64,000 bases of DNA, from IMG/VR virus record IMGVR_UViG_3300047160_010363, positions 1-64,000 of that record; one strand, 5' to 3'. The stretch comes from a virus. Shown piece after piece: positions 25,044 through 40,435 of the stretch. The notes under the pieces are model-generated. The model was not told the origin of the DNA. It searched no databases and was given only the letters and a program-made list of their open reading frames with translations. Positions within the stretch are counted from its first letter, which is position 1, and each line of letters opens with the position of its first letter. A program made the translations under genes and the position numbers.

Positions 25044-26147
25044 ATGGCCACTATTTCAGAGTCGCTGCCAACGCGTCCGATACACGACGCGTTGGTGGCT
25101 GGCGTCGACACGCTGGGTCAGAACCAGCAGGTGTCGTTTGTGCCATATGTGCGTCAGGTTCTGCCAGTTGACGGGTTCGCATTTTGGATCAATGCGAACC
25201 TGCTCACCCCGGTTCAGATAGCACAGAACGGGCTGACTTCTGCTGATACAGTCGTTGTCGATGGTTCGCTTCACTACGCCTCGGTGGGTTCTCAAGTCGC
25301 CGACGAGACGATCGTGGTGCGTTCGGTGGACTTCACGGCCGAGACCGAGATCCAAGCGTTTGCCGAGATTGCGCCCAATGTGATCTATGTTGGTCAATGG
25401 ACGACTCCCATGGGTTCGTTCAATTTCACGTTCGGTGCCAGAAATAGTTTCTATCGTCAGGCAAATATCTTTCACTACGTTGGAGACGCAGTCTACCCCG
25501 CTTTTGAAGCGCAGCTGGTAGACGATCTATCATCATTTGACCAGTCACGGGTCGTAAGCAATAGCTTGCCGATCTGGCTATCGATGATGACGAATATTCC
25601 GCCATATTCGTTGGTCAACATTTCAGTGCCTGTATTTCCGGCGTTTTTGGTGCCGACGAACACTATCCCCTCTTACGTTGCGATTGAGATTTTGCCGAAC
25701 ACCACCAGAGCACTGCAGGCGATACCTTTACGCACACCGTCTTCTATGACGCACATACAGCTGGCGTCTGAGCGAGTCAAGATGATCTCTTACGGGCTGC
25801 GCAACAATGGCATCTCTGATCTGATGGACTATGTTCTCGATTACTCTGCGTCCACTGGCAATATAGGGATCATGGGTGCACCGATAATCAGGGATGAGCA
25901 CCGGCCGCAGGTCGAGCTGGCCGCGTTGGCTCAGAAGAAGGTGATTGAGTGGGAAGTCAGCTATTTTCAGTTTAGGGCGCGTGAGATAGCTCGCCAGTTG
26001 ATACTGTCTGCCGGAGTGTCGTTTCCGATCGTTGAGATCAATCGTTATCGCGTTACTCAGGATGACGCCTATCGGGTCACGGAGGATCTGACAAACCGTA
26101 AGATTGGCCCGCCTGTGTTTAATACTGATATGCCGGTGGCGATATGA
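25044..26147 (+). CDS. Head-closure / tail-terminator protein
   Basis: VLPVDGFAFW, GSLHY, VSNSLPIW, YGLRN. Confidence 0.75.
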   Translation: MATISESLPTRPIHDALVAGVDTLGQNQQVSFVPYVRQVLPVDGFAFWINANLLTPVQIAQNGLTSADTVVVDGSLHYASVGSQVADETIVVRSVDFTAETEIQAFAEIAPNVIYVGQWTTPMGSFNFTFGARNSFYRQANIFHYVGDAVYPAFEAQLVDDLSSFDQSRVVSNSLPIWLSMMTNIPPYSLVNISVPVFPAFLVPTNTIPSYVAIEILPNTTRALQAIPLRTPSSMTHIQLASERVKMISYGLRNNGISDLMDYVLDYSASTGNIGIMGAPIIRDEHRPQVELAALAQKKVIEWEVSYFQFRAREIARQLILSAGVSFPIVEINRYRVTQDDAYRVTEDLTNRKIGPPVFNTDMPVAI

Positions 26148-26395
26148 GCAGTACCTCAATGGAAGCGGGTTGGCAGCCGATTGAGACAGCGCCAATTGCA
26201 AAGTCCGATGAAGATGATATTTGGATTTGGGCTTGTCGGCGAGGTCATAAGCTGCCTATGCTAACTACCTATGATCATGAAAACGGTTGCTGGTACACAT
26301 TCAACTTGGCGCTTGAAAGAGGGATGGGTCGGCAGAATCCGAACTGGAGGTGGGAGCCGACGCACTGGATGCCTGTGCAGGAAGTTCCACAATGA
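26144..26395 (+). CDS. DUF551-like protein
   Basis: WQPIETAP...PTHWMP. Confidence 0.75.
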   Translation: MSSTSMEAGWQPIETAPIAKSDEDDIWIWACRRGHKLPMLTTYDHENGCWYTFNLALERGMGRQNPNWRWEPTHWMPVQEVPQ

Positions 26396-26437
26396 GGTGG
26401 CCAGCCGGACGATATAGAATCATGCTTAGCGACGTGA

Positions 26438-26776
26438 ATGATGGCGTTTAGGTTTTTCGGTCTGGGATTTCAGAATGTCATTGGTATTATAACGATATCG
26501 CCAACCACCTTTACGGCTGGAACTCCGAATGGAGTTATTGGCGCGATCTCTGTTCCAATGCTTACACCAACTGAAGCTTTCACCGGCACACTAGTTATTG
26601 GTGGAACTAATTCTGGTGGGTTTCAACTTTCAAGTGCCACGCTCCCTAGTAACTTGCTGCAGAGCACTGGCGGCACAGCTGCGGACACGTACACTGACTT
26701 TACTATAACCCCGACACAGGCGAACGCCATTAACTCCGGCGTTGCGCAGTCTGGATTCTCTATCACCGGTAGCTAG
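26438..26776 (+). CDS. Cadherin/Ig-like small protein
   Basis: T/G-rich; GVIGAISV, FQLSS, FTITPT. Confidence 0.55.
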   Translation: MMAFRFFGLGFQNVIGIITISPTTFTAGTPNGVIGAISVPMLTPTEAFTGTLVIGGTNSGGFQLSSATLPSNLLQSTGGTAADTYTDFTITPTQANAINSGVAQSGFSITGS

Positions 26777-26800
26777 AACACTCTGAGGAGATGATTTGAG

Positions 26801-27292
26801 ATGCCACGCTATCAGGCTATTCAATTGCAGTCCACAGTTTCGACCGCGTTTAAGAGCACCGGCGTGCTCTTTGCCAGCTCTGCGGTGCGAGCGCGACGTG
26901 TCAATATCTACGAGTACAATTTTGGTCAGTACGGTTCGCTGTCCTCTACAGACTCGCAAGTTTACTACGACGTGTCGAGATTCATCACCACGTCATTGCT
27001 TGCCGGCACGGCTGTCGCGCCTAACCTGAACGACCTTGCGGATGACGCGGCTCTCTGCATCTACCTCAATAATATAACTACTGAGTTGGCGGCGCTTTCT
27101 GCTGCCGGTGCTGGTCTTAGTCTGGTACAGGAAGCGCAGAACCAGCGCGGCACATACCGCTGGCGTGCGTTGGAGACCTATGATCTACTGACAATGCCGG
27201 CTACCAGCCTCAGTGGGCTCGACTTCCGCGTGCAGTCAATCGCGTCTGGTTACGCTGCGAGCATGGTCGGGCAGGTGTTGTTCTTGGAATGA
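26801..27292 (+). CDS. Small beta-sandwich putative filament subunit
   Basis: GAGGAG SD; strong codon bias; NQRGTYRW motif. Confidence 0.65.
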   Translation: MPRYQAIQLQSTVSTAFKSTGVLFASSAVRARRVNIYEYNFGQYGSLSSTDSQVYYDVSRFITTSLLAGTAVAPNLNDLADDAALCIYLNNITTELAALSAAGAGLSLVQEAQNQRGTYRWRALETYDLLTMPATSLSGLDFRVQSIASGYAASMVGQVLFLE

Positions 27293-27789
27293 GCTGGGAT
27301 GCGAGCGCTCCGCCCAGGAGTGTGATCCACAAGTTCATTTTTGACCGTTCAGACGACGCCAGTCAGTTCGATGCACGTCGAGGTGACTGGCGCGTCGAAA
27401 ACGGTCACCACTATAACTTCGACGCACCGCACCGGCCAAGACAGCAGCAGCCTGGTAGCCAGACTGAACTGCGCACTCCACCAAAGGGATGGGGTCGTGA
27501 CACAGTAGTGTTGAAGGATGTGTTTCAGTGCCAGCACTGGCCTTGTACTGTGCATGTCAAGCTGCCGCACGGTGTGAGGGTCGGTGATGACGGGAGTGGG
27601 TGGTGTAAGCACTGCGGCGGGCTCATATGCGCTGCGTGCATGCGACTGAGCGCGTGCCTTCCCATGGAGGAGGGTATCTACAGATTTGAGCAGATGGCAA
27701 AGATCAAGGAGCGCATGAGCGCCGAGGATCTTCGGCGTGATGTGGACTCATTAGCTAAACTCAAGGAGGTCGGGTTAATCAGTGGATAA
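27289..27789 (+). CDS. Zinc-finger protein
   Basis: CQH..C, WCKHC...ICAAC, CLP. Confidence 0.65.
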   Translation: MSWDASAPPRSVIHKFIFDRSDDASQFDARRGDWRVENGHHYNFDAPHRPRQQQPGSQTELRTPPKGWGRDTVVLKDVFQCQHWPCTVHVKLPHGVRVGDDGSGWCKHCGGLICAACMRLSACLPMEEGIYRFEQMAKIKERMSAEDLRRDVDSLAKLKEVGLISG

Positions 27790-28144
27790 TGATGAAGAGA
27801 GCTCCATAACTCCAGAGATGATCGCAGCTGGCGCAGCGGCGATCGAAGAGTACGCGGGCGGGTCTTATACTCAGTGGCGTCGTGCGGTCGTGAGAGTGTG
27901 GCAGGAGATGCACCGTGCCAGCAACGATGAACCGCACAGTGGTGGTGAGACGTTTGCGTTGGCCTATGACCGCAACATTGCAATGCAGAAGAGCATGGAA
28001 GTTGCAGCCGATAAGGGTAAACAAAAACGTGATGAAATGGCGGCCGCCGCAAAGCTCCATGGTTTTCATCAGATTACCATCGATCCTCAGCCAGCTGAGC
28101 TGGCTGAGATTGAGTGGCAAGAGTGGTTTAAGGCGAACGCGTAA
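27782..28144 (+). CDS. Hypothetical protein
   Basis: ITPEMIAAGA motif; AAGGAGG SD. Confidence 0.55.
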   Translation: MDNDEESSITPEMIAAGAAAIEEYAGGSYTQWRRAVVRVWQEMHRASNDEPHSGGETFALAYDRNIAMQKSMEVAADKGKQKRDEMAAAAKLHGFHQITIDPQPAELAEIEWQEWFKANA

Positions 28145-28359
28145 TGGTGGTTGGTGATTATCAATACCCGTTGTGGGTAAGAAAGTTTTGGCTTGACCCA
28201 ACTGCGTGCTGGCCGTGGGACCATGTGTGGAATTATCGCGCACCTTGCGTTAGGGTATGCGGTAAATGTGGTATTCCGCAACAAAGAATATTGCTGTTTA
28301 TCTGGCGACGCTTGTGGCTAAAGAATGTAGCTCATCAAATGAGGATAGACGCGTAAGCC

Positions 28360-30585
28360 ATGGGCTGCCTTCTACGCTTTAAGTTTTCAGACGAACTGGT
28401 CGAGCAATACCCCTGCTTTGTAGAGACTGGAGTTGGTGCTGGCGTGTCTCTGGGCTACGCGGCTGAGCACAAGTTCAGCAGGCTCTCGTCTATTGAGTAC
28501 GATGAGAGACTCATAAACGTCACTAGACCCATATTTGGTTCCGATTCACGAGTCCGCATAGTTCAAGGGAACAGTGGCAGCACGCTAGGCCCACACATTG
28601 AGAGTTATCCGAACGGGACTGGCTTCGTGTTCTGGTTGGACGCCCACTGGCCTGGCTCTGATTATTTTGGCGATCCATACGTCGTTAAAGACGACCAAGA
28701 AGACGTGGCGCTACCACTGATGGCTGAATTCCAAGCCATTGCAGATACCTGGGACGTACATAACGGCCAGTTTGTGATCATAGTGGATGATGTGTCTACC
28801 ATGATGATGCTGGATCAGGGGGCTTCATACCTGTTCCGGTTCTGTGGCACGCACGATACGCATATCTGGATGAAGGACGAGGGTTACGCAGTCATAACAC
28901 CCAAGGGCAGTGGATCAAAGCCGGAGCTGATAGAGCAGTACGACATATTTCAGCTCGTCTCGGCGTCAAGACGGTATATTGAGCACGGGCACTGGAGCGG
29001 CGCGCGTGGCTTCGTTGGCGCTATCATGGGTTTGACCGAGAAGATCGACGATACCGATCGTAAGGTTTTCTCAGCCAAGCGTGTGGCCCGCGGCGAAGCG
29101 TGTCGGTTTATGGCGGCCGAGGCGATGTCTCGGCACAACGTTGGCGCCGCTTCAGATCTGTTCATACAGGCGATGATCGCGGACCCTCTCTGCATCGAGT
29201 ATCGCATGGACTACATATACCATGCGCTGCTGCCGATCAACTTTACTGAGCTTGCTCTGCACGAGGCCAGGGTAGCCACCAAGATGTTTCCAGACAACCC
29301 ACGGGCTTGGTGCTCGTTGGTGGAAGTCCACCGTCGACTTGGGAACCGCGAAGAGGCTGCTGTTGCCATGTCGACAGCACAGCAGTGCCCACGCATTGGG
29401 ATGACTGACCTGCTCGCAGCGCAGTTGGCGGCCGATCTTGGAGAATTTGATGAATCTGTTCGGCTCTACAAGAAGGTCATAGACGAGCATCCTGACCGCC
29501 ACGGTGAGGCGTTGCTTGGCTGGGGCGTCGCCATTGCTCGTGACGGTCGTTTTGAAGAGAGCATTGCGTTATTTGACGAGGCCCTGGAGGTGGGCACTCC
29601 TGACGATGCGCTGTGCCGTTGGAACCGTGCTGAGAACCTATTGTCCCTTGGCCGCTATGCGGAGGGTTGGCTGGACCACGGCCGCAGGTTTGACCTAGCG
29701 ATGAAGATACCCGGTGTCGGGGCAGCCAACACTCGTTTTTCTAAGCCTCGCTGGGAAGTGGACACATCTCCATGCAGAGTATTAGTGCAGAGTGAGCAGG
29801 GCTTTGGAGACGCCATCTGCATGGCGCGTTATGTACCGATACTGCGCGATCTCGGTCATCATGTGCAGTTTGAAGTAGACCCTAAATTGGTGGATTTGTT
29901 TTTGCAGAGTCCACAGTTTGATGGTGTTAAAATTATACCACGCGCTGTAGATTACCCAGGTTCGATCGGCATCGAAGATTTTGATGTCAATATGCCATCG
30001 ATGTGCTTTCCTGCCGCTTTCGGCACCACTACAGATAATTGCCAATGGACTGACCCGTATCTTCAGGCTCAGCGAGGCACGTGGGATGACTTGAGACCTA
30101 ATCAGATGCGACAGAAGCTTAAAGTTGGTTTTTGTTGGCGTTCAGGTCGACGCGACGGCATCTGGGAAGATGAATATTATCAGCGTAAAAGCCTCGTTTG
30201 GGATGATGCAAAGCAGATCATAGAGTCGTTCGGTAACGCTATTGACTGGCACTTATTTGATTTTCCAGTAGACCGGCAGAAACCAGATCTTCCAGGGCCA
30301 AGCTTTGCAGAGACTGCTGACATTTTATCGACGTGCGATCTATTAATAGCGTGTGATACTGGCATTGCTCACCTCGGCGGCGCGATGGGTATGCCGGTGT
30401 GGGTACTACGCCATGGACCGGCTGCTTCTTGGCATTGGATGGCAGCCGAGGCCGAAGGTGGTCGATGGGTTACGAAGTCACCATGGTATCCGTCGGTTAC
30501 GATATTCAGGCAGCGAAAGGCCCACGCTTGGAGCGAAGTTATTAGTCAGGTCATTGCGGAGCTTAGGGGATATTCGCCAAAGTAA
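28360..30585 (+). CDS. Fusion: class I SAM methyltransferase-like + TPR + GT-B (GT9-like) glycosyltransferase
   Basis: FVETG.G.G, SIE, QGNS, FWLDAH; TPR helices; EQGFGD...ARY, DTGIAHLGGAMG, SPWYPSVTIFRQ. Confidence 0.88.
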   Translation: MGCLLRFKFSDELVEQYPCFVETGVGAGVSLGYAAEHKFSRLSSIEYDERLINVTRPIFGSDSRVRIVQGNSGSTLGPHIESYPNGTGFVFWLDAHWPGSDYFGDPYVVKDDQEDVALPLMAEFQAIADTWDVHNGQFVIIVDDVSTMMMLDQGASYLFRFCGTHDTHIWMKDEGYAVITPKGSGSKPELIEQYDIFQLVSASRRYIEHGHWSGARGFVGAIMGLTEKIDDTDRKVFSAKRVARGEACRFMAAEAMSRHNVGAASDLFIQAMIADPLCIEYRMDYIYHALLPINFTELALHEARVATKMFPDNPRAWCSLVEVHRRLGNREEAAVAMSTAQQCPRIGMTDLLAAQLAADLGEFDESVRLYKKVIDEHPDRHGEALLGWGVAIARDGRFEESIALFDEALEVGTPDDALCRWNRAENLLSLGRYAEGWLDHGRRFDLAMKIPGVGAANTRFSKPRWEVDTSPCRVLVQSEQGFGDAICMARYVPILRDLGHHVQFEVDPKLVDLFLQSPQFDGVKIIPRAVDYPGSIGIEDFDVNMPSMCFPAAFGTTTDNCQWTDPYLQAQRGTWDDLRPNQMRQKLKVGFCWRSGRRDGIWEDEYYQRKSLVWDDAKQIIESFGNAIDWHLFDFPVDRQKPDLPGPSFAETADILSTCDLLIACDTGIAHLGGAMGMPVWVLRHGPAASWHWMAAEAEGGRWVTKSPWYPSVTIFRQRKAHAWSEVISQVIAELRGYSPK

Positions 30586-30586
30586 C

Positions 30587-31219
30587 ATGGCTTTTACACC
30601 CTCCGCGATTGGATCGGCAAATGGTAACAATGTTGCATCACTCTCCATCGTAGTTCCCAACGCTCTTGGTATTTCAGCCGGGCACCAGCTTTGGGTTGCC
30701 TATGGCGGGAGTTCGTTACTAGGCGGCAACGGGGTGCCAACTGACCCCGCTGGGAACGTTTACAGTGCTGTTGCTGCCGAGAGTACAGGCACTGCAAACA
30801 TCATAGTATTTCAGGTGCCAAGTTCACTCGCGTTGAGCGTCAACGCGGGAATATTGTTGGTCCCACCAACGGCGGTATTTTCAGGTCGAGCGGCGGCCTT
30901 TTCTGCGACCGGCTTTTTATCCGGCATCGTTGAGGCCTCTTCTAGCGGCATTGGCACATCGACGCTGCCAGACGTTGCCCTCAATAATGTACCGGCAAAC
31001 AATTGGTGTATAGGGGTTGTCGGAGTCGCTGGCCCGTCTTCGGATGGGTTCACCCAGCCGACCGGCTGGTCCAATCTCGGCAACCTAAATACGCAAACAA
31101 CCACCAACTTCTCGATCTATGCTGGCTATCTTCAGTCTACAGGGGGCCAAGTAGTCTATGCGCCGACATTGGGCGTCAGCCGCGACTGGGTTGGGTTGCT
31201 GCTGTCGCTCCAGTCTTAG
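30587..31219 (+). CDS. S/T/G-rich beta-domain virion protein
   Basis: TDPAGNVY, PTGW, YAPTL..SRDW; similar to the N-terminus of 31238. Confidence 0.7.
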   Translation: MAFTPSAIGSANGNNVASLSIVVPNALGISAGHQLWVAYGGSSLLGGNGVPTDPAGNVYSAVAAESTGTANIIVFQVPSSLALSVNAGILLVPPTAVFSGRAAAFSATGFLSGIVEASSSGIGTSTLPDVALNNVPANNWCIGVVGVAGPSSDGFTQPTGWSNLGNLNTQTTTNFSIYAGYLQSTGGQVVYAPTLGVSRDWVGLLLSLQS

Positions 31220-31237
31220 TGGGGGAGTTAAGCCTAC

Positions 31238-34138
31238 ATGGCGTGGGCAACCCCTGTCAGTATCGGGACTAATTCAGCTGCTAGCGTTGTAGCCAGTGGT
31301 ACTTTGTCGATTACTGTAGGTGTAGGCGGTGTACCGGCAGGTTCGCTTATAGTAGTATGTGCTGGTTTAAGTGGCACTCTTAATGGGCAGCACATATTTA
31401 CTGGTACTGAGATATCTGATGGCAGCAATACTTACGGCGTAGCTGATCAGGCGAATCCGGCGGCTACGGTCGGTAATGGTATAGGGGTAATATTCTATTC
31501 CTATAATGTCACAGCGCTTGTACAAAACGCGACAATAACGCTCACTAGTCAAGACACTGGTGCGGCGCGCGTCCTAATAATGACTGCGTTGTATGTAACT
31601 GGTGGACCAGTAACTAATCCACTCAATACAGCAGCCACCACAAGCGGTGGGACGACTGGATCATCTACCACACCAAGCGCCACCATGCGTGCAGTGCCGC
31701 TTCCATCTTCCCTCGCTGTTGCGTGGTTGCAAGTTCACCCAACGGCAGGCCCAACAACATTAACACAAGACACAGGGAATGGGTGGGCGTTTCCCCCGAA
31801 TACTCCGACTGGTCAAAATTTATGCCAAGGGATAGGCGGATATAAAATCACAAGTACTCAAGATACGTATGCTCCGACTATATCAGTATCGCATGATTGG
31901 TCTGATATCATTGCAGTATTCTCTCCAGACACTACTGTCTGGCAAGAATATTCACCTCCCCTGTTTATCCAGCGTGGGAACAAAGCAGCGTTGGTAGCGG
32001 CGACCGGCCAATTCAGAGCGGAGACAATACCATCGAATCTGTTGCCACCACGCTATGGCTATGAATTAACGTCACCGTCGTTATTTTCTCAGCCCAGAAT
32101 GAAGAGGGCAGCACAGGTAGCAACTGGACAGTTTCGGTCGGAAACAGTGCCGTCGAATTTGCTGCTACCGCGCTATGGTTACGAGTTAACTTCGCCAGCT
32201 GTAATACGTGCCAAGAGGAATATAGATCCTCCAATTCCATTGATTCGCCAGAATACTGATGTCGCTACGCGATATGGTTACGACCACGTACCACCGACAT
32301 TTGTTCGTGTGGTACGCAAACCAGATTTACCAGTTCCGCTTAATCGACAGGATAGCGACGCAGTACCGCAATATGGTTATGAATTAACATCGCCAGCCAT
32401 AATTAGGGCACGTAAGCCAGATTTATCAGTTCCTTTGGTTCGCCAAGATGCTGACATGCCACCGCGGTATGGTTATGAGCAGATACCACCGACATTCACT
32501 CGGGTAGCGCGTAAGCCTGATTTACCCATCCCGTTGACTCGTCAAGATAGTGACGCGCCAACACAGTATGGTTATAAGCTTACTTCTGTACCTCTAACAC
32601 GTACCAAGAGGAACACAGACCCACCAGTTCCTCTAAATCGTCAAGACACCGACACGCGGACGCAATACGGTTATGAGCAGGTACCACCGACGTTTACTAG
32701 ATCGGTGCGCAAGCCAGACCTGCCAGTTTCACTTATTCGTCAAAACAGTGACGCATCGACGCAGTATGGTTATGAATTCACTTCACCGGCATTGGTCAGA
32801 GTGCGTAAGAATCCTGACCCTCCAGTTGTAATAACCCGATTAGATTCAGACATCACCACCAAGTACGGTTATGAGCAGATTCCACCGACGTTTGTCCGTG
32901 TGGTGCGTAAGCCAGACTTACCAGTACAACTCATCCGTATAAATAGCGATGATGCAACTCAGTTCGGTTATGATTTGGTCTTCCCTATATTTGCACGGGT
33001 TGCACGCAAACCGGATTTACCAGTTGCGCTAAATCGGCAAGACACTGACGTTCCGCCACCTCCAGTAGTTCAGTATTATGGATACGAGCTGGCATTTCCA
33101 TCGATCACCAGGGTCAGCCGTAAACCTGATCTGCCCGTTCCGCTGAGCCGTCAAGATAGTGACATACCAACGCAGTATGGCTACGAGTTAACGTCTACGC
33201 CTTTAGTGCGCGCCAAGAGGAACACAGATCCACCCATTTTACTTAGTCGTCAGGATAGTGATGCGTCTACGCAGTATGGTTATGAACAGGCGTCACCGAC
33301 GTTTGTTCGCGTGGTGCGCAAACCGGATTTACCAGTCGCTCTAAATCGGCAGGATACTGACACAGCGCCTCCTCCTGTGGTTCAGTATTATGGGTATGAA
33401 CTAACGTTTCCATTTTTTATCAGGCTCAGACGTAAGCCCGATTTGCCAGTTCCACTGAACCGTCAAGACAGTGACACGTCGACGCAGTACGGCTACGAGC
33501 TGACGTCCACACCTCTAATACGTGCCAAGAGGAACACAGATCCACCAGTTCCACTGAACCGTCAAGACAGTGACGTTGCTACACAGTACGGTTATGAGCC
33601 AACACATCAATCTTTTGTTCGGGTGCTCCGTAAACCGGATCTCTCTGTTATTCTGATAAGGCAAGACAGTGATATTGAGCCAGTTTATGGGTATGAATTT
33701 ACGACTCCGGCAATGGCGCAGTTTTGGAGAAAGGTAGATCTCCCGGTACCAACTGGTCGCTTAGATTTTGTAATACCACCGCCGCCAGTCCCTTTGCTTT
33801 ACGGATTTGATCTAGCGCAGTACGTCTTGCAGTCATCACGATGGCCGCATTATTCTGCAGCAGTGGCTGGTCTGTCTTTAGTTTCATCGCCTTTAATTAT
33901 ACCTTACCACGGGTTTGAGCTTACATCTCCACCGTTACTGTGGAGAGGTCCTAGACTTATTGACCTCACACCTACTGATTGGATCGTCATTCGCGCGATT
34001 ATCCGCGCTATTGGCATACACGCAGTGGCTGATGGTCTGTTTATATCGTCTGTTTTGCAAGATCAGATACTGATTTCGAAGATAATTAGTGATAACTTGA
34101 CTTTGGCTTCTTCTATAGAAGATGATGAAATAATCTGA
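31238..34138 (+). CDS. Repeat protein: N-terminal beta domain + about 17-19 33-aa YGYE/RKPDLP/RQD repeats
   Basis: 966-aa ORF; repeats counted in the translation. Confidence 0.9.
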   Translation: MAWATPVSIGTNSAASVVASGTLSITVGVGGVPAGSLIVVCAGLSGTLNGQHIFTGTEISDGSNTYGVADQANPAATVGNGIGVIFYSYNVTALVQNATITLTSQDTGAARVLIMTALYVTGGPVTNPLNTAATTSGGTTGSSTTPSATMRAVPLPSSLAVAWLQVHPTAGPTTLTQDTGNGWAFPPNTPTGQNLCQGIGGYKITSTQDTYAPTISVSHDWSDIIAVFSPDTTVWQEYSPPLFIQRGNKAALVAATGQFRAETIPSNLLPPRYGYELTSPSLFSQPRMKRAAQVATGQFRSETVPSNLLLPRYGYELTSPAVIRAKRNIDPPIPLIRQNTDVATRYGYDHVPPTFVRVVRKPDLPVPLNRQDSDAVPQYGYELTSPAIIRARKPDLSVPLVRQDADMPPRYGYEQIPPTFTRVARKPDLPIPLTRQDSDAPTQYGYKLTSVPLTRTKRNTDPPVPLNRQDTDTRTQYGYEQVPPTFTRSVRKPDLPVSLIRQNSDASTQYGYEFTSPALVRVRKNPDPPVVITRLDSDITTKYGYEQIPPTFVRVVRKPDLPVQLIRINSDDATQFGYDLVFPIFARVARKPDLPVALNRQDTDVPPPPVVQYYGYELAFPSITRVSRKPDLPVPLSRQDSDIPTQYGYELTSTPLVRAKRNTDPPILLSRQDSDASTQYGYEQASPTFVRVVRKPDLPVALNRQDTDTAPPPVVQYYGYELTFPFFIRLRRKPDLPVPLNRQDSDTSTQYGYELTSTPLIRAKRNTDPPVPLNRQDSDVATQYGYEPTHQSFVRVLRKPDLSVILIRQDSDIEPVYGYEFTTPAMAQFWRKVDLPVPTGRLDFVIPPPPVPLLYGFDLAQYVLQSSRWPHYSAAVAGLSLVSSPLIIPYHGFELTSPPLLWRGPRLIDLTPTDWIVIRAIIRAIGIHAVADGLFISSVLQDQILISKIISDNLTLASSIEDDEII
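32050..33930 (+). repeat. Degenerate 99-bp coding tandem repeat array
   Basis: Recurring TAYGGNTAYGAR with mostly 99-bp spacing. Confidence 0.85.
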
Positions 34139-34139
34139 A

Positions 34140-34544
34140 ATGGTCGCGACACCAGGTCCTGGTTTTGTTCCAACAATTACAAATATTGGCATTCCAGTGC
34201 CTTCTGGATCGACGCCGATATACACTGGTAAGCTAGTCGATGTGTATGGAAATCCTATAGGACCGTCTCAGCTTGATACATTGACGTTAACTATCTGTGA
34301 TACGTTGACGCAAATAGTTATAAATAATGTGCAACAAGTAAACATATTGAATGTGGATCGAGGCACTTTGAATGATTCAGGTATACTAACTATCACACTG
34401 CTTTCTACGGACACGTTGTTAACCGAAGCTCCTGGTCAACCGTCGGTTCAGCGGTCTCTTGTGATAGATTGGAAGTATAATGGCGAGGTGTCTGTGGGTC
34501 GCCATCAAGTGAACTTCAATATTGTTGCGTTGGCCGGAGCTTAA
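34140..34544 (+). CDS. BppU-like adaptor domain protein
   Basis: GST..Y...L.D..G.PI, G.L.ITL...DT, C-terminal F.IV.L. Confidence 0.6.
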   Translation: MVATPGPGFVPTITNIGIPVPSGSTPIYTGKLVDVYGNPIGPSQLDTLTLTICDTLTQIVINNVQQVNILNVDRGTLNDSGILTITLLSTDTLLTEAPGQPSVQRSLVIDWKYNGEVSVGRHQVNFNIVALAGA

Positions 34545-34548
34545 TGAC

Positions 34549-36207
34549 ATGCCGTCAATCGTTACCGTAAACGTCACACAGCAAGTAGCTCCGATTCCGG
34601 CGACGCTCCAGCGCATAGGGGCGTTTGTCAGTCAGGGTGGTACTGTGCTGGCACCTGGATCATCAGCGCTGCTCACTCAGCCCAGCGACCTTACACCGTT
34701 GCTGACTGCGAGTGGGGTGATCTCGTCGCTGGTTTGGGCTGCCCAGGCTGTCACCGTCACTACGTTGTTGCCTCACGGTTTCCCGATCGGTGACCAAATG
34801 ACGGTGATTATTCGTGGCGCCAATCCGGTGGGGTTTGATGGAACTTTTTTGGTAAATGTGACGGGAGCCAGTACGTTTGTCTACCCTCTTGGGTTCAACC
34901 CTGGCGCTGTGGTCGTTGCGGGCTTTTACGCTCCACTGAGTCAGCGCGAGCTTGTGCAAATGACCAACACGTTTTTTGCGCAAGGTGTTGATCTCTCCGT
35001 GTACGTGCTTGAACTGGGTCCAGGTGGCGCTGATATTGGCTCAGCGGCCCTAGGCGCGTACCTCACGCAGAACCCAAATACTGCCTATACGTCTGGCTCT
35101 ACTGGGTTTTTCTATCGGTATTTAGTTCCTCGCCCGTGGGATGGTGACCCAAGCTTCTTGAATCTTGTTCAACAGTACGATGACCCCACTTCCCGCACTT
35201 ATTTTCACGTAACGACGACGCTCTCCAACTATGTCAATTACACAGATTTGGAAAAGTCTGTCTTTGCCTTAATAGAGTCGCCAATTGTCGATGCGTATCC
35301 AGCCAATGCCCTAACTGCCATTACATGGTCTAATGGTGTGGTTACTGCCACGACCACAGTGGCGCATGGCGTTCTACCGGGTACGTGGTTTCAAATCCAG
35401 GGATGTGTTCCAACAGCCTATAATGGATACTGGCTGGCGTTGCCTGGTACTGTTGGCGCGACGTTGTTCTATTCGTTGGCGACCAACCCTGGGGTAGAAA
35501 CTACCCTTGGGACTCTGGTGGCCAGTTTGTACACAAATCCAGGCGTGCCTCCGACTGAGTTTACATCGGCGTGGCCGTTCTGGGCTGCTCTGCACTACAA
35601 CCCGAGCCCTACAAATCGGGTGGCTCCGTTTGCATTTAAGTTTGGGTTCGGAGTCACGCCATTTCCCACCCGTGGTTTCAGCGCCTTATTGTCGCAGCTA
35701 TTAGCGTCTGGCATCAATTATGCTGGCACTGGCGCCGAAGGCGGGAGCTCTAACGTTATCCTTCGTAATGGCACTACGGCTGATGGGCGACCACTGACAT
35801 ACTGGTATTCAGTCGATTGGGCGCAGGTTAACAGCGATTTGGAACTGTCGAATGCGGTCATCAACGGGGATAATGATTCCGTCAACCCATTGCTGTACAA
35901 CCAAGACGGCATAAACCGGCTGCAGGGCGTGGAAGTTGGTGTGATGAACAGTGCCATAACCTTTGGGTTGGCGAATGGTACTGTGGTGACCTCTGCACTC
36001 GATCAGGCCAGTTTTAACCAGGCTCTTCTTCAGGGCAAGTTTGCTGGTCAGATTGTTGTTAATGCCGTCCCGTTTGCCTCTTACGTGTCGACCAATCCGA
36101 GCGATTATCCAGCGGGGATATACGCTGGTCTTTCAGTGAACTACATCGTCCAGAATGGCTTTGTTTCGATCGTGTTTAACCTGAACGTTACAGATTTCCT
36201 CACATAA
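34549..36207 (+). CDS. Tail sheath protein with two inserted beta domains
   Basis: [31 protein letters not shown]. Confidence 0.9.
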
Positions 36208-38419: not shown

Positions 38420-40435
38420 GTGCCAGTCAGGATTGGTCTAGAAGTTGATGTAGATGACGCTAAATTCAAGACGTTCACCGAGAGCTTTGCTAAATACAAG
38501 GAGGCTCTGGACAAGACACCAAATAGCTGGCGAAACGTTACGGAATCGATCAGGAGCGTAAACGACGGATTTAAGGGCTTTGATGTATTGCTCTTTGCTC
38601 AATCTGGGTACCTGGCGAAGATGCTGAAAGACATGAACGCGTTCGGCCGTGCGACTGGGGATACCAACCGTCACATGACCGCATTGGCGCGCACGACTCA
38701 CTCCGTGGCACAGCACTTAACGGATGCAACGCGCCACATATTGAGGTGGGGGACGATATCGACTGCGTTAGCTGGACTGGCTGGTTTTGGTGGTTTGTTT
38801 GGATTGCGTGCTCTGGGCGAGCGAGCGTCCACAGACTACCGCACAGCAACTGGCGCTGGGGTCAATGTTGGAGAGCTGCGGGCGTTACGCACCGTGTTTC
38901 CCTACATTACAGATCCAGAGGCGTTACTTCAGGCAGCAACCTCTGCGCGTTATGGTGCAGTGGGAGAAGCTGGCGCCGCGGCTTCCATACTTGGCATCCG
39001 CGGTCGCGAAACACCATTTGAAACTGTTTTGGGTATACGTGAGGCTGCCCGCAACTTTGCGCGCTCTGTTCGTGACGATAGATATTTAGAGAATGATCCG
39101 CGAGCCGAGCAGTTTCGACATCTAGGCATTGACACTGGGACGTTGCTGCGACTAAGACACCAGACCGATGAAGAGTTTCGTCAGGACACCGAGGAGGCTC
39201 GTCGTTTTGCCAAGAAAGCTGAACAAGATGACCAAACGTCAAAGGCGTGGCAGAGGCTGCTGCTCAGTCTTGGTGAAGCTGGAACCCTGATTGAAAATGC
39301 GTTTATCAAAGGATTGACACCGCTGGTTCCTCAAATTGGCAGGTTGTCTGAAGCGTTTACTAAGTTAGTCACAGCGTTGTTTGAAAAAGGAGGTTTATTT
39401 AGCGAATTTGTGGACGCTGCTGCCAGAGGTTTAAAGTGGCTGGCAGACAACATCAACACACCTGAGTTCAAGGAGGGAGTAAAATCTTTCATAACTGGAA
39501 TCGGCCGAGCTGCTGAGGCTTTTGGACCATTTGTTTCTGGTCTAGAGACCGTAGCAGCAGCACTAGGGCACTTTATCGAGTTCACAAGTAAGCATCCGGC
39601 CCTGTTTGGTGCTGTGGCTGGCGCTGTTGTTGGTTCGCGGTTCGGTCCGTGGGGTGCCGCCGCTGGAGCAGCTGCTGGTGCAGCTGCTGGCCTGGTTATG
39701 AGCCAGAGTGAACATGACACAGCGCTCGCGACAGCAGTTCGTGACTGGGAAACGCATCCACACGGTGACAAATCTTATGCCGATGTGGTAAAAGAGTTTG
39801 AGACTAATTGGACTAAAACGCACCCACCAGGTCAGTCGGTTCAAGAGCCTGGCACTGCCTTGGGAAGTAGTCGAGGCAAACCAACTGCCGAAGATGCGGA
39901 TGTTGCGCGCTCTCTTTACGGGTATGCGACTGGCCAGCTTGGGCTTGACCCGTCTCATGCTATGGCGATGATTGCTAACGCCTGGCATGAGAGTGGGTTC
40001 AAGGCAATGTCTGTCGGCAGGGCAGGTGAAAAGGGGATATTTCAGTGGAAAGATGATCGTTGGGATAAACTGGCGACTGAGTTGGGTGCCAATAAGTTTA
40101 ATTTGTACAAAGAATTTGCTTATGCGGTTAAAGAGCAGCGAGAACGTGATCCGGGTTGGTTTAACCGCAACATTGGAGACACTCCGCGTTCTGTTTCCGA
40201 ATTTGAACATGGCTTTGAGCGCCCAGCACAAGAGACTGGTCGCTTGGGGGACCTTCGCGCCGTGATGGAGATGCTTGGGATGAATAAACCCCAGCAGCAG
40301 CCCACCGCGCAGCAGTCGTCATATGGTCAACAGCAGTCGTCGCTGGCGCCCCAGCAGCAAGTCAGGATAGTGGTGGAGAACAGGACTGGAGGTTCAGCTA
40401 TTATCACAAGCAACTCCTTGGGGGCGACGGCGTAA
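38420..40435 (+). CDS. Tape measure protein with C-terminal phage tail lysozyme domain
   Basis: Helical Ala/Gly-rich; ANAWHESG, GIFQW...R, FERPA. Confidence 0.88.
   Translation: MPVRIGLEVDVDDAKFKTFTESFAKYKEALDKTPNSWRNVTESIRSVNDGFKGFDVLLFAQSGYLAKMLKDMNAFGRATGDTNRHMTALARTTHSVAQHLTDATRHILRWGTISTALAGLAGFGGLFGLRALGERASTDYRTATGAGVNVGELRALRTVFPYITDPEALLQAATSARYGAVGEAGAAASILGIRGRETPFETVLGIREAARNFARSVRDDRYLENDPRAEQFRHLGIDTGTLLRLRHQTDEEFRQDTEEARRFAKKAEQDDQTSKAWQRLLLSLGEAGTLIENAFIKGLTPLVPQIGRLSEAFTKLVTALFEKGGLFSEFVDAAARGLKWLADNINTPEFKEGVKSFITGIGRAAEAFGPFVSGLETVAAALGHFIEFTSKHPALFGAVAGAVVGSRFGPWGAAAGAAAGAAAGLVMSQSEHDTALATAVRDWETHPHGDKSYADVVKEFETNWTKTHPPGQSVQEPGTALGSSRGKPTAEDADVARSLYGYATGQLGLDPSHAMAMIANAWHESGFKAMSVGRAGEKGIFQWKDDRWDKLATELGANKFNLYKEFAYAVKEQRERDPGWFNRNIGDTPRSVSEFEHGFERPAQETGRLGDLRAVMEMLGMNKPQQQPTAQQSSYGQQQSSLAPQQQVRIVVENRTGGSAIITSNSLGATA

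Follow-up and report, generated by a model that had tools for sequence, protein, structure and literature searches.

Gene content of the cassette

We analyzed a cassette of genes located between the neck and tail sheath genes of an uncultured virus (IMG/VR record IMGVR_UViG_3300047160_010363; 99,982 bp, with an estimated completeness of 80%). The stretch of DNA studied here, referred to as the window, covers the first 64 kb of this record. The cassette encodes a small jelly-roll protein, a zinc-finger protein, a predicted methyltransferase-glycosyltransferase fusion and a long repeat protein. We found that the jelly-roll, zinc-finger and repeat families are linked in well over 80 uncultured phage contigs, in which their order and orientation are conserved within structural modules. 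The structural backbone of the window resembles those of the ~45-kb myophages Klebsiella phage Chronis, the Yersinia vB_YenM phages and Pantoea PdC23, and its head and neck genes share PHROGs of unassigned function with Chronis-type phages. In Chronis (MN013086), the 312-amino acid (aa) gp10 is followed directly by the sheath gene. In the window, 8.4 kb with ten open reading frames (ORFs) separates the sheath gene from the positional counterpart of gp10. Positions 26144-34544 are extra DNA relative to the cultured relatives and, because gp10 of Chronis directly adjoins the sheath gene, can be read as an insertion at the neck-to-tail junction. All ORFs of the cassette lie on the same strand with stops and starts that overlap or abut (Table 1; genes and their proteins are named by the first position of the gene). 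Promoter- and terminator-like sites were not more frequent in the cassette than in shuffled sequence.

Table 1. Positions of the cassette genes, their domains and the flanking genes in the window.
Feature	Position	Strand	Basis
Neck-region backbone gene, 367 aa (left flank)	25044..26147	+	phrog_6359, 6.7e-75
Small single jelly-roll protein, 163 aa, first gene of the conserved pair	26801..27292	+	AlphaFold2 model; strong Shine-Dalgarno sequence
Cys/His zinc-finger protein, 166 aa, second gene of the pair	27289..27789	+	Family HMM, 5e-13
Putative ORF, 120 aa	27782..28144	+	ORF call only
Putative ORF, 70 aa, Trp/Cys-rich	28144..28356	+	ORF call only
Predicted three-part enzyme, 741 aa	28360..30585	+	Domain matches and homologues
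Class-I methyltransferase-like domain of 28360 (~residues 1-200)	28360..28959	+
TPR domain of 28360 (~residues 290-440)	29227..29679	+	TPR_16, 5.3e-12
GT9-like GT-B glycosyltransferase domain of 28360 (~residues 450-741)	29707..30585	+
Beta-sandwich protein, 210 aa, "head-only" paralogue of the N-terminal domain of 31238	30587..31219	+	ESM Atlas model
Repeat protein 31238, N-terminal globular domain (residues 1-232)	31238..31933	+	Translation
Repeat protein 31238, array of ~18 units of 33 aa (residues 233-900)	31934..33937	+	In-register translation
Repeat protein 31238, C-terminal tail, hydrophobic then acidic (…EDDEII)	33938..34138	+
Protein of a small stand-alone family, 134 aa	34140..34544	+	Relatives 24-28% identical
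Tail sheath (right flank)	34522..36207	+	phrog_205, 4.9e-24; 43% identity to Chronis sheath gp11

The gene for the jelly-roll protein, which is single-copy in the window's genome, carries a GAGGAG motif 7 nt 5' of its ATG. An AlphaFold2 model of 26801 based on a 124-sequence alignment has ten strands in an all-beta jelly-roll (predicted local distance difference test, pLDDT, 91.4); the large alignment was needed, as a model based on 12 close sequences only reached a pLDDT of 39. 26801 has no match in Pfam, PHROG or NCBIfam, and none of the 124 aligned family members matches a PHROG. A profile search of 1.8 billion representative proteins delimited a family of 423 clusters, nearly all of 150-165 aa. 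The near-invariant residues in the 124-sequence alignment are polar or aromatic (R33, D51, N114, Q115, R116 and W121), and this conservation suggests a specific ligand site. The best structural matches overall are uncharacterised phage proteins (TM 0.6-0.72). Among solved structures, the best match is Ena1B of Bacillus, a single jelly-roll of similar size (Z 8.8, root-mean-square deviation 2.4 Å, 96 residues aligned), followed by capsids of plant and satellite viruses (Z ~8), the KHP40 cement protein (Z 7.9, 2.7 Å, 102 aligned), the BPP-1 cement protein (Z 6.5, 3.3 Å, 109 aligned) and chain 8h89_J of a GP4 capsid entry (Z 6.3). Identity to Ena1B and the KHP40 and BPP-1 proteins is only 5-12%, such Z values are typical of any jelly-roll, and the 26801 family is known from genes alone. 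Ena-type (DUF3992) subunits are disulfide-linked, whereas the 26801 family has no Cys among its invariant or near-invariant columns. A candidate link to the head filament of Caulobacter phage phiCbK was dropped, the phiCbK genome having no jelly-roll homologue.

The second gene of the pair encodes a zinc-finger core at residues 72-141 of 27289 (consensus T..CxHC…G…CxxC…C…C.P.E). The N-terminal 70 aa form an extension that is absent from relatives of ~90 aa.

In the predicted enzyme 28360, a tetratricopeptide repeat (TPR) domain lies N-terminal to the catalytic glycosyltransferase (GT) domain. TPR_2 and TPR_19 match at residues 351-414 along with TPR_16, and a PDB match to human OGT (2e-8) falls on the TPR region of that protein; the OGT matches are confined to the TPR part. 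The GT domain has a Glyco_transf_9 (PF01075) match and weak matches to TIGR02193 (E 0.006) and 3tov_A (E 0.035). We found 303 homologues of 28360 (E down to 1e-129), many with precomputed PF01075 and TPR families and one with an additional FkbM methyltransferase. A profile of the N-terminal domain, built from this domain and three stand-alone viral homologues, matches ErmC' (1yub, 4e-6) and KsgA-type enzymes (1e-4), in both cases over profile positions 8-75. Motif I (Gly-rich), the acidic residue that follows strand 2 and the next strand are all present. The domain on its own has no Pfam or NCBIfam match, and its homologues give only sub-threshold matches to RrnaAD or Methyltransf_11. In the 1293-aa metagenomic protein P0175, FkbM methyltransferase, TPR and GT9 parts are fused; all three functions of 28360 are present, but the methyltransferase belongs to another family.

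The beta-sandwich gene 30587 starts 2 nt past the stop codon of 28360. Its ESM Atlas model (predicted TM score, pTM, 0.84) has TM scores of 0.81-0.86 to unannotated modules of bacterial surface proteins, and the protein is weakly paralogous to residues 164-225 of 31238 (BLASTP E 4e-4). The globular head of 31238 includes a Ser/Thr-rich loop at ~residues 130-148. The array that follows comprises 15 canonical 33-aa units, three of them followed by a 5-aa Pro-rich insert, together with one 32-aa unit and degenerate flanking units. Positions G2, Y3, D18 and R25 of the unit are invariant, and Y1, R12, R15, P20, D29 and S/T28 are near-invariant; R25-x-D27 is kept in every 33-aa unit. The units are 54% identical in amino acids and 58% in nucleotides, with a median dN/dS (ratio of nonsynonymous to synonymous substitution rates) of 0.16, and are under purifying selection. 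The array also contains one 312-nt higher-order duplication. We found no close relatives of 31238 in IMG/VR, INPHARED or JGI metagenomes and a single homologue, P0001, in a search of 5.8 billion proteins. The unit number varies, from ~8-10 in P0001 and ~18 in the window to >20 in the repeat protein of IMG/VR locus L009. The repeat protein of another locus, L059, ends much as 31238 does (…DDEDAFIILM; L059:12780-12825). The acidic-then-hydrophobic ends of these otherwise dissimilar proteins recall the C-terminal acidic peptides bound by TPR clamps and, by this analogy, could allow docking to the TPR enzyme or the neck.

A first-pass annotation, made from the letters of the window alone, had placed the cassette between neck and sheath genes, and the PHROG matches of the two flanks agree with this. 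It had also read the cassette as containing a strongly expressed-looking small beta protein, a zinc finger, a methyltransferase-TPR-GT fusion, a beta-domain protein and a 33-aa repeat protein. The strong ribosome-binding site and all-beta model of 26801, the family HMM match to the Cys/His core of 27289, the confident beta-sandwich model of 30587 and the array of 31238 bear out four of these descriptions. The fusion was likewise recovered: its TPR part is well supported, the short GT9 match scores below the cut-off but homologues carry PF01075, and the methyltransferase assignment comes from the four-sequence profile.

Co-occurrence of the gene families in uncultured phages

We fetched 68 IMG/VR loci that encode a relative of 26801. 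The zinc-finger hidden Markov model (HMM) matches 63 of these, almost always no more than ~1 kb downstream of the jelly-roll gene. Four of the five remaining loci end within 411 nt of the jelly-roll gene, so that 63 of 64 assessable loci hold both genes, and the jelly-roll and zinc-finger genes are a near-obligate pair. The only assessable locus without a downstream zinc finger, L008 (L008:1-4205), encodes the closest IMG/VR relative of 26801 (49% identity) and has a repeat-type protein upstream of the jelly-roll gene. In another locus (L022:10999-15078), the zinc-finger domain opens a 1359-aa ORF that runs on through a hydrophobic segment; the ORF reflects either a genuine fusion or an overlooked stop codon.

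In many loci, long proteins whose internal period is 31-44 aa lie downstream of the pair, and repeat proteins of a shared skeleton follow it in ~20 of the 40 loci with enough downstream DNA. The shared unit begins with G-W/Y, followed a few residues later by a Pro and then by basic residues, P-D or L-P, and R-x-D; it was seen in the window, P0001, L009, L012, L059 and L105. Variant units with an R/K..A..A-T/S-G..F motif are part of the shared pattern, and are present also in the first two units of the window's array and in P0001. We link the window to L009 by the shared skeleton and architecture only, because the unit HMM derived from 31238 has no match in the L009 repeat protein and BLAST of P0001 against that protein gave E 0.04. 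The association was also recovered from the repeat side. Among 15 new loci with at least 3 kb of upstream DNA, 11 hold the jelly-roll and zinc-finger genes upstream on the same strand, and two more hold the zinc finger (13/15).

The heads of these repeat proteins differ between loci. That of L014 is a lectin-type Laminin_G_3 domain, those of L009 and L059 are Gly-rich (the Gly_rich_2 match of L009 is weak and below the cut-off), and a window-like beta-sandwich heads the repeat proteins of L039 and L105. The N-terminal heads are interchangeable, which fits a distal tip. In L030, the repeat protein is fused to a tail-terminator-like domain (phrog_4204, 5e-9), a C-terminus unique to that locus.

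The four nearest relatives of the GT, in L103 (the same contig as L009), L104, L105 and L106, are 34-42% identical to that of the window and all lie beside the pair; they are among the six TPR-GT loci, of 60 found, that hold the pair. The gene order in L009/L103 is jelly-roll, methyltransferase, zinc finger, three-part fusion, three beta-rich ORFs and a 1351-aa head-plus-repeat protein. The fusion is a full-length homologue of 28360 (37% identical, matching along all three parts). L105 has the order jelly-roll, zinc finger, probable methyltransferase (so labelled from a Gly-rich motif seen by eye), 762-aa TPR-GT fusion and head-plus-repeat gene (>1594 aa), the start of which is overlapped by the GT gene. 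The match between the L105 fusion and 28360 begins at residue 195. For the N-terminal parts of this fusion and of that in L106, the PDB gave no match. Between the zinc finger and the glycosylation genes, L105 also encodes a 340-aa protein (L105:6784-7806) with a signal-peptide-like start and 42-aa units that look like propeller blades by eye (GPDGALWFTE…).

The GT lies between the jelly-roll and zinc-finger genes in both L037, next to a Methyltransf_24 gene, and L045, next to an FkbM methyltransferase gene. Three unrelated types of methyltransferase thus accompany the GT in L009, L037 and L045. Because these unrelated enzymes occupy the same position beside it, methylation is probably part of the same pathway. 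L037 (L037:10001-14630) has two jelly-roll genes. Between them lie a 202-aa ORF, the Methyltransf_24 and TPR-GT genes and a 152-aa ORF, and the zinc finger comes after the second copy. Relatives of the TPR-GT enzyme also follow the capsid gene in MW202512, with FkbM and a galT-like gene, and lie among the fibre genes of Synechococcus phage BUCT-ZZ01; neither of these two carries the jelly-roll/zinc-finger pair.

We found one deposited phage record with the jelly-roll gene, which is metagenomic, and no cultured phage among the deposited records that carries the family. A prophage search gave no match to the 26801 gene in bacterial genomes, and the Chronis genome has no jelly-roll homologue.

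Neighbourhood co-occurrence, which the first-pass annotation had proposed as a check on its reading, was therefore largely positive, both in the two scans and around the nearest GT relatives (L103-L106). The module is layered: a jelly-roll/zinc-finger core is frequently joined by a repeat protein with exchangeable heads and, in one sub-lineage, by a glycosylation unit. This layering follows from the near-obligate pair, the presence of the repeat protein in about half of the loci and the position of the nearest GT relatives beside the pair.

A possible virion appendage and competing explanations

We tentatively read the cassette as modular and accessory: a group of late genes, inserted where head and tail meet in a Chronis-like myophage, that most likely builds a non-essential virion appendage. 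This reading is based on the position in a late operon at the head-tail junction, the swappable heads, the selected charged and aromatic units, and the one terminator-like fusion. Gene content, folds and domains, selection on the units and co-occurrence are shown by the sequences; the virion location, the binding partners, and the glycosylation target and its sugar are inferred. The core would consist of 26801, which is small and probably abundant, and its zinc-finger partner 27289, a pair that is carried by hundreds of uncultured phage lineages. Attached to this core, 31238 may form an elongated shaft or string with a beta-sandwich head, ~18 units and a short acidic tail. Its units could either be a folded fibre or provide repeated docking sites for the jelly-roll protein, with the head pointing outward as a binding tip and the C-terminal end docked at the neck. 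The enzyme 28360 would act in the cytoplasm, where its TPR part may hold a protein substrate while the GT-B part adds a sugar, probably methylated, to a module protein before assembly. The candidates encoded nearest the enzyme gene are the repeat protein and the head paralogue 30587.

The first-pass annotation had gone further and proposed a virion filament in which the repeat protein is a ruler coated by 26801 subunits. The appendage part of this proposal is supported by the co-occurrence, and a coat of 26801 is conceivable: the linkage seen from both sides, the strong ribosome-binding site of 26801 and its patch of conserved polar residues all favour it. About half of the pairs occur without a repeat protein, and 26801 is therefore not simply the coat of a 31238 ruler. 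The proposed BppU-like anchor was left without support, as detailed below.

Cytoplasmic O-glycosylation of a module protein is favoured by analogy, because the architecture of 28360 is like that of FlmG and its catalytic half is like the TibC fold. In Caulobacter crescentus, FlmG binds flagellin through an N-terminal TPR domain and glycosylates it with a GT-B domain (PMC7591256). We liken 28360 to FlmG by architecture, in that both have an N-terminal TPR and a C-terminal GT-B domain. In the FlmG system, the subunit is modified in the cytoplasm before assembly into an external filament and the TPR domain gives substrate specificity, and we propose the same for 28360. Unlike FlmG, 28360 has an extra N-terminal methyltransferase-like domain, and its GT part is GT9-like. 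The adhesins TibA and AIDA-I are repeat-rich and encoded beside their enzyme. TibC attaches heptose to serines of the TibA and AIDA-I passenger domains, and its GT-B catalytic domain is similar to WaaC, a lipopolysaccharide (LPS) heptosyltransferase (PMC4358343). The likeness of the catalytic half of 28360 to this fold is drawn from the description of TibC. In contrast to 28360, TibC has no TPR or methyltransferase domain, is an iron-containing dodecamer and acts on a beta-helical autotransporter.

Phage-encoded glycosyltransferases located by structural genes reportedly glycosylate the virions of mycobacteriophages, as described by Freeman et al. in 2023. A further source (PMC11256854) also remarks on this modification. 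The mycobacteriophage enzymes differ from 28360 in that they target capsid and tail-tube subunits and are not known to be TPR-GT9 fusions or to have jelly-roll, zinc-finger or repeat partners.

Other comparisons concern the shape of the repeat protein. Being long, repeat-built and encoded beside neck genes, 31238 is similar to neck fibres. The T4 fibritin (wac) whiskers and the lactococcal neck-passage structures are dispensable, elongated, repeat-built neck proteins, some with carbohydrate-binding modules. Fibritin is a coiled coil, whereas the units of the window are 33-mers rich in Pro, Arg and aromatic residues with no detectable relation to fibritin. The length and variable unit number of 31238 are also reminiscent of tape-measure proteins. 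Unlike these, 31238 is Pro-rich and has a globular head, and a separate gene at 38420-40435, identified by its position and size, is the probable tape-measure gene in its usual place. Pro-rich composition itself argues against a tape-measure-like helical rod.

Several observations weigh against the appendage reading. Around half of the pair-bearing loci show no repeat protein, and the pair occurs in only six of 60 viral TPR-GT loci. The homology between the repeats of the window and those of L009 and L105 is not statistically supported (P0001 versus L009, BLAST E 0.04). The jelly-roll fold is generic, and capsid cement matches 26801 about as well as fibre subunits do (Z 6.5-8.8). The upstream neighbours of the pair vary and include head, terminase, portal and tail-fibre genes, and every relative of the module is metagenomic. 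For the enzyme, the Glyco_transf_9 match (8e-4) scores 19.2 bits, below the Pfam cut-off of 22, and spans only 33 residues at the nucleotide-sugar binding motif, while the methyltransferase match is restricted to the cofactor (SAM, S-adenosylmethionine)-binding half of the domain.

Some of these observations are accommodated by two unrelated neighbouring structures. In such an arrangement, the jelly-roll protein would cement or decorate the capsid, helped in assembly by the zinc finger, the repeat protein would be an independent neck or tail fibre, and the enzyme would glycosylate whichever of these is exposed. The resemblance of 26801 to the trimeric KHP40 cement, the BPP-1 cement and 8h89_J speaks for this; the two cement proteins lie among many unrelated jelly-rolls at Z 6-9. 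In both the complete genome MW202566 and the L047 clade, the jelly-roll gene comes after terminase and portal genes and before tail-side genes. The genes most often seen upstream of the pair include those for major head proteins, but tail-fibre and terminase genes are equally common there, and the pair in the window follows neck genes at a distance of 5 kb from the major capsid gene. The occurrence of the pair without repeat proteins also fits two separate structures, whereas its presence in 11-13 of the 15 repeat-side loci is far above what a shared position in the module would lead one to expect. The invariant polar residues of the jelly-roll family are a further point on the other side. On balance, we regard two independent structures as rather unlikely.

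It is also conceivable that the target of 28360 is not a virion protein but an acceptor in the host envelope, as for GT9 heptosyltransferases acting on LPS, or the phage DNA. The sole Pfam glycosyltransferase match of 28360 is to the LPS heptosyltransferase family, DNA-hypermodifying phage glycosyltransferases are well documented, and 54 of the 60 viral TPR-GT loci lack the pair. Against this stand the TPR domain ahead of GT-B, which is the architecture of the proven protein O-glycosyltransferase FlmG, and the placement of 28360 inside a late structural operon, with translational coupling to 30587 and, for the L105 enzyme, to the gene of the repeat protein. In MW202512 and BUCT-ZZ01, relatives of the enzyme are likewise encoded among capsid or fibre genes. 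Overall, we consider an envelope or DNA target improbable. Finally, the cassette could be non-structural, a set of morons for host takeover, exclusion or counter-defence riding in the late operon. It is an insertion absent from cultured relatives, the structural region of this genome holds many other inserted genes, and two cassette ORFs (27782 and 28144) have no relatives at all. Against this, the structural modules of more than 80 contigs conserve the order and orientation of the genes. The varied globular heads on long repeat proteins, one of them Laminin_G_3, suggest fibres or adhesins, and the L030 fusion points in the same direction. We therefore consider a non-structural role very improbable.

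The jelly-roll, zinc-finger and repeat families have no Pfam models, and the jelly-roll family and those repeat proteins that were compared with PHROGs also lack models there, such that they escape standard annotation. The linkage of the three families provides an experimental handle on an accessory virion structure. If the appendage reading is correct, the cassette would be a second and mechanistically different example of phage virion glycosylation, by a TPR-guided GT9-like enzyme with a methyltransferase. It would also represent a new kind of fibre, the interchangeable heads of which probably bind ligands, and would thereby bear on the host range and surface attachment of phages. Such a decorated virion appendage is probably undescribed so far. 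In its most specific form, which we offer as a long shot, each 33- to 43-aa unit of a string protein would dock a jelly-roll subunit or ring, so that the unit number sets the length of the filament. A swappable, in some cases lectin-like, head would occupy one end, the zinc finger would be a cap or assembly factor, and in some lineages a TPR-GT9 enzyme would add a coat of methylated sugar. This filament would be widespread in uncultured phages and absent from cultured ones.

Adjacent and minor genes

The last gene of the cassette, 34140, had been taken for a BppU-like adaptor. We found no Pfam match for it, including BppU_N, even at E 10, and a profile of its family gave nothing against the PDB (BppU included) except invasin at E 0.75; the adaptor assignment is not borne out. 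Its relatives lie in L025/L026, L044, L047 and L064, beside other conserved genes of unassigned function, and 34140 is more likely a gene of the backbone or neck side than a dedicated adaptor. We rejected the possibility that it is a C-terminal domain split off from the P0001 or L009 proteins (hhalign probability ~0.1%).

The two small ORFs between the zinc-finger and enzyme genes have no Pfam, PHROG or NCBIfam match. For 27782, tblastn gave no match in related loci, and 28144 has no relatives. Two further inserted ORFs precede the module at 26144-26776. The first (83 aa) has a weak phrog_60 match and a GWQPIETAP-type start, the second (112 aa) is Thr/Gly-rich with no assigned fold, and neither has relatives among the fetched loci. 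No relatives of the left-flank gene 25044 were found in an IMG/VR backbone search. In the L047 clade, a 314-aa gene precedes the pair, for which PHROGs, the PDB and comparison with 25044 provided no identity.

In the ORF list, the sheath ORF starts at a TTG (34522) and overlaps the end of 34140 by 23 nt. The true start of the sheath gene is likely the ATG at 34549, ten codons in and just past the upstream stop (MPSIVTV…).

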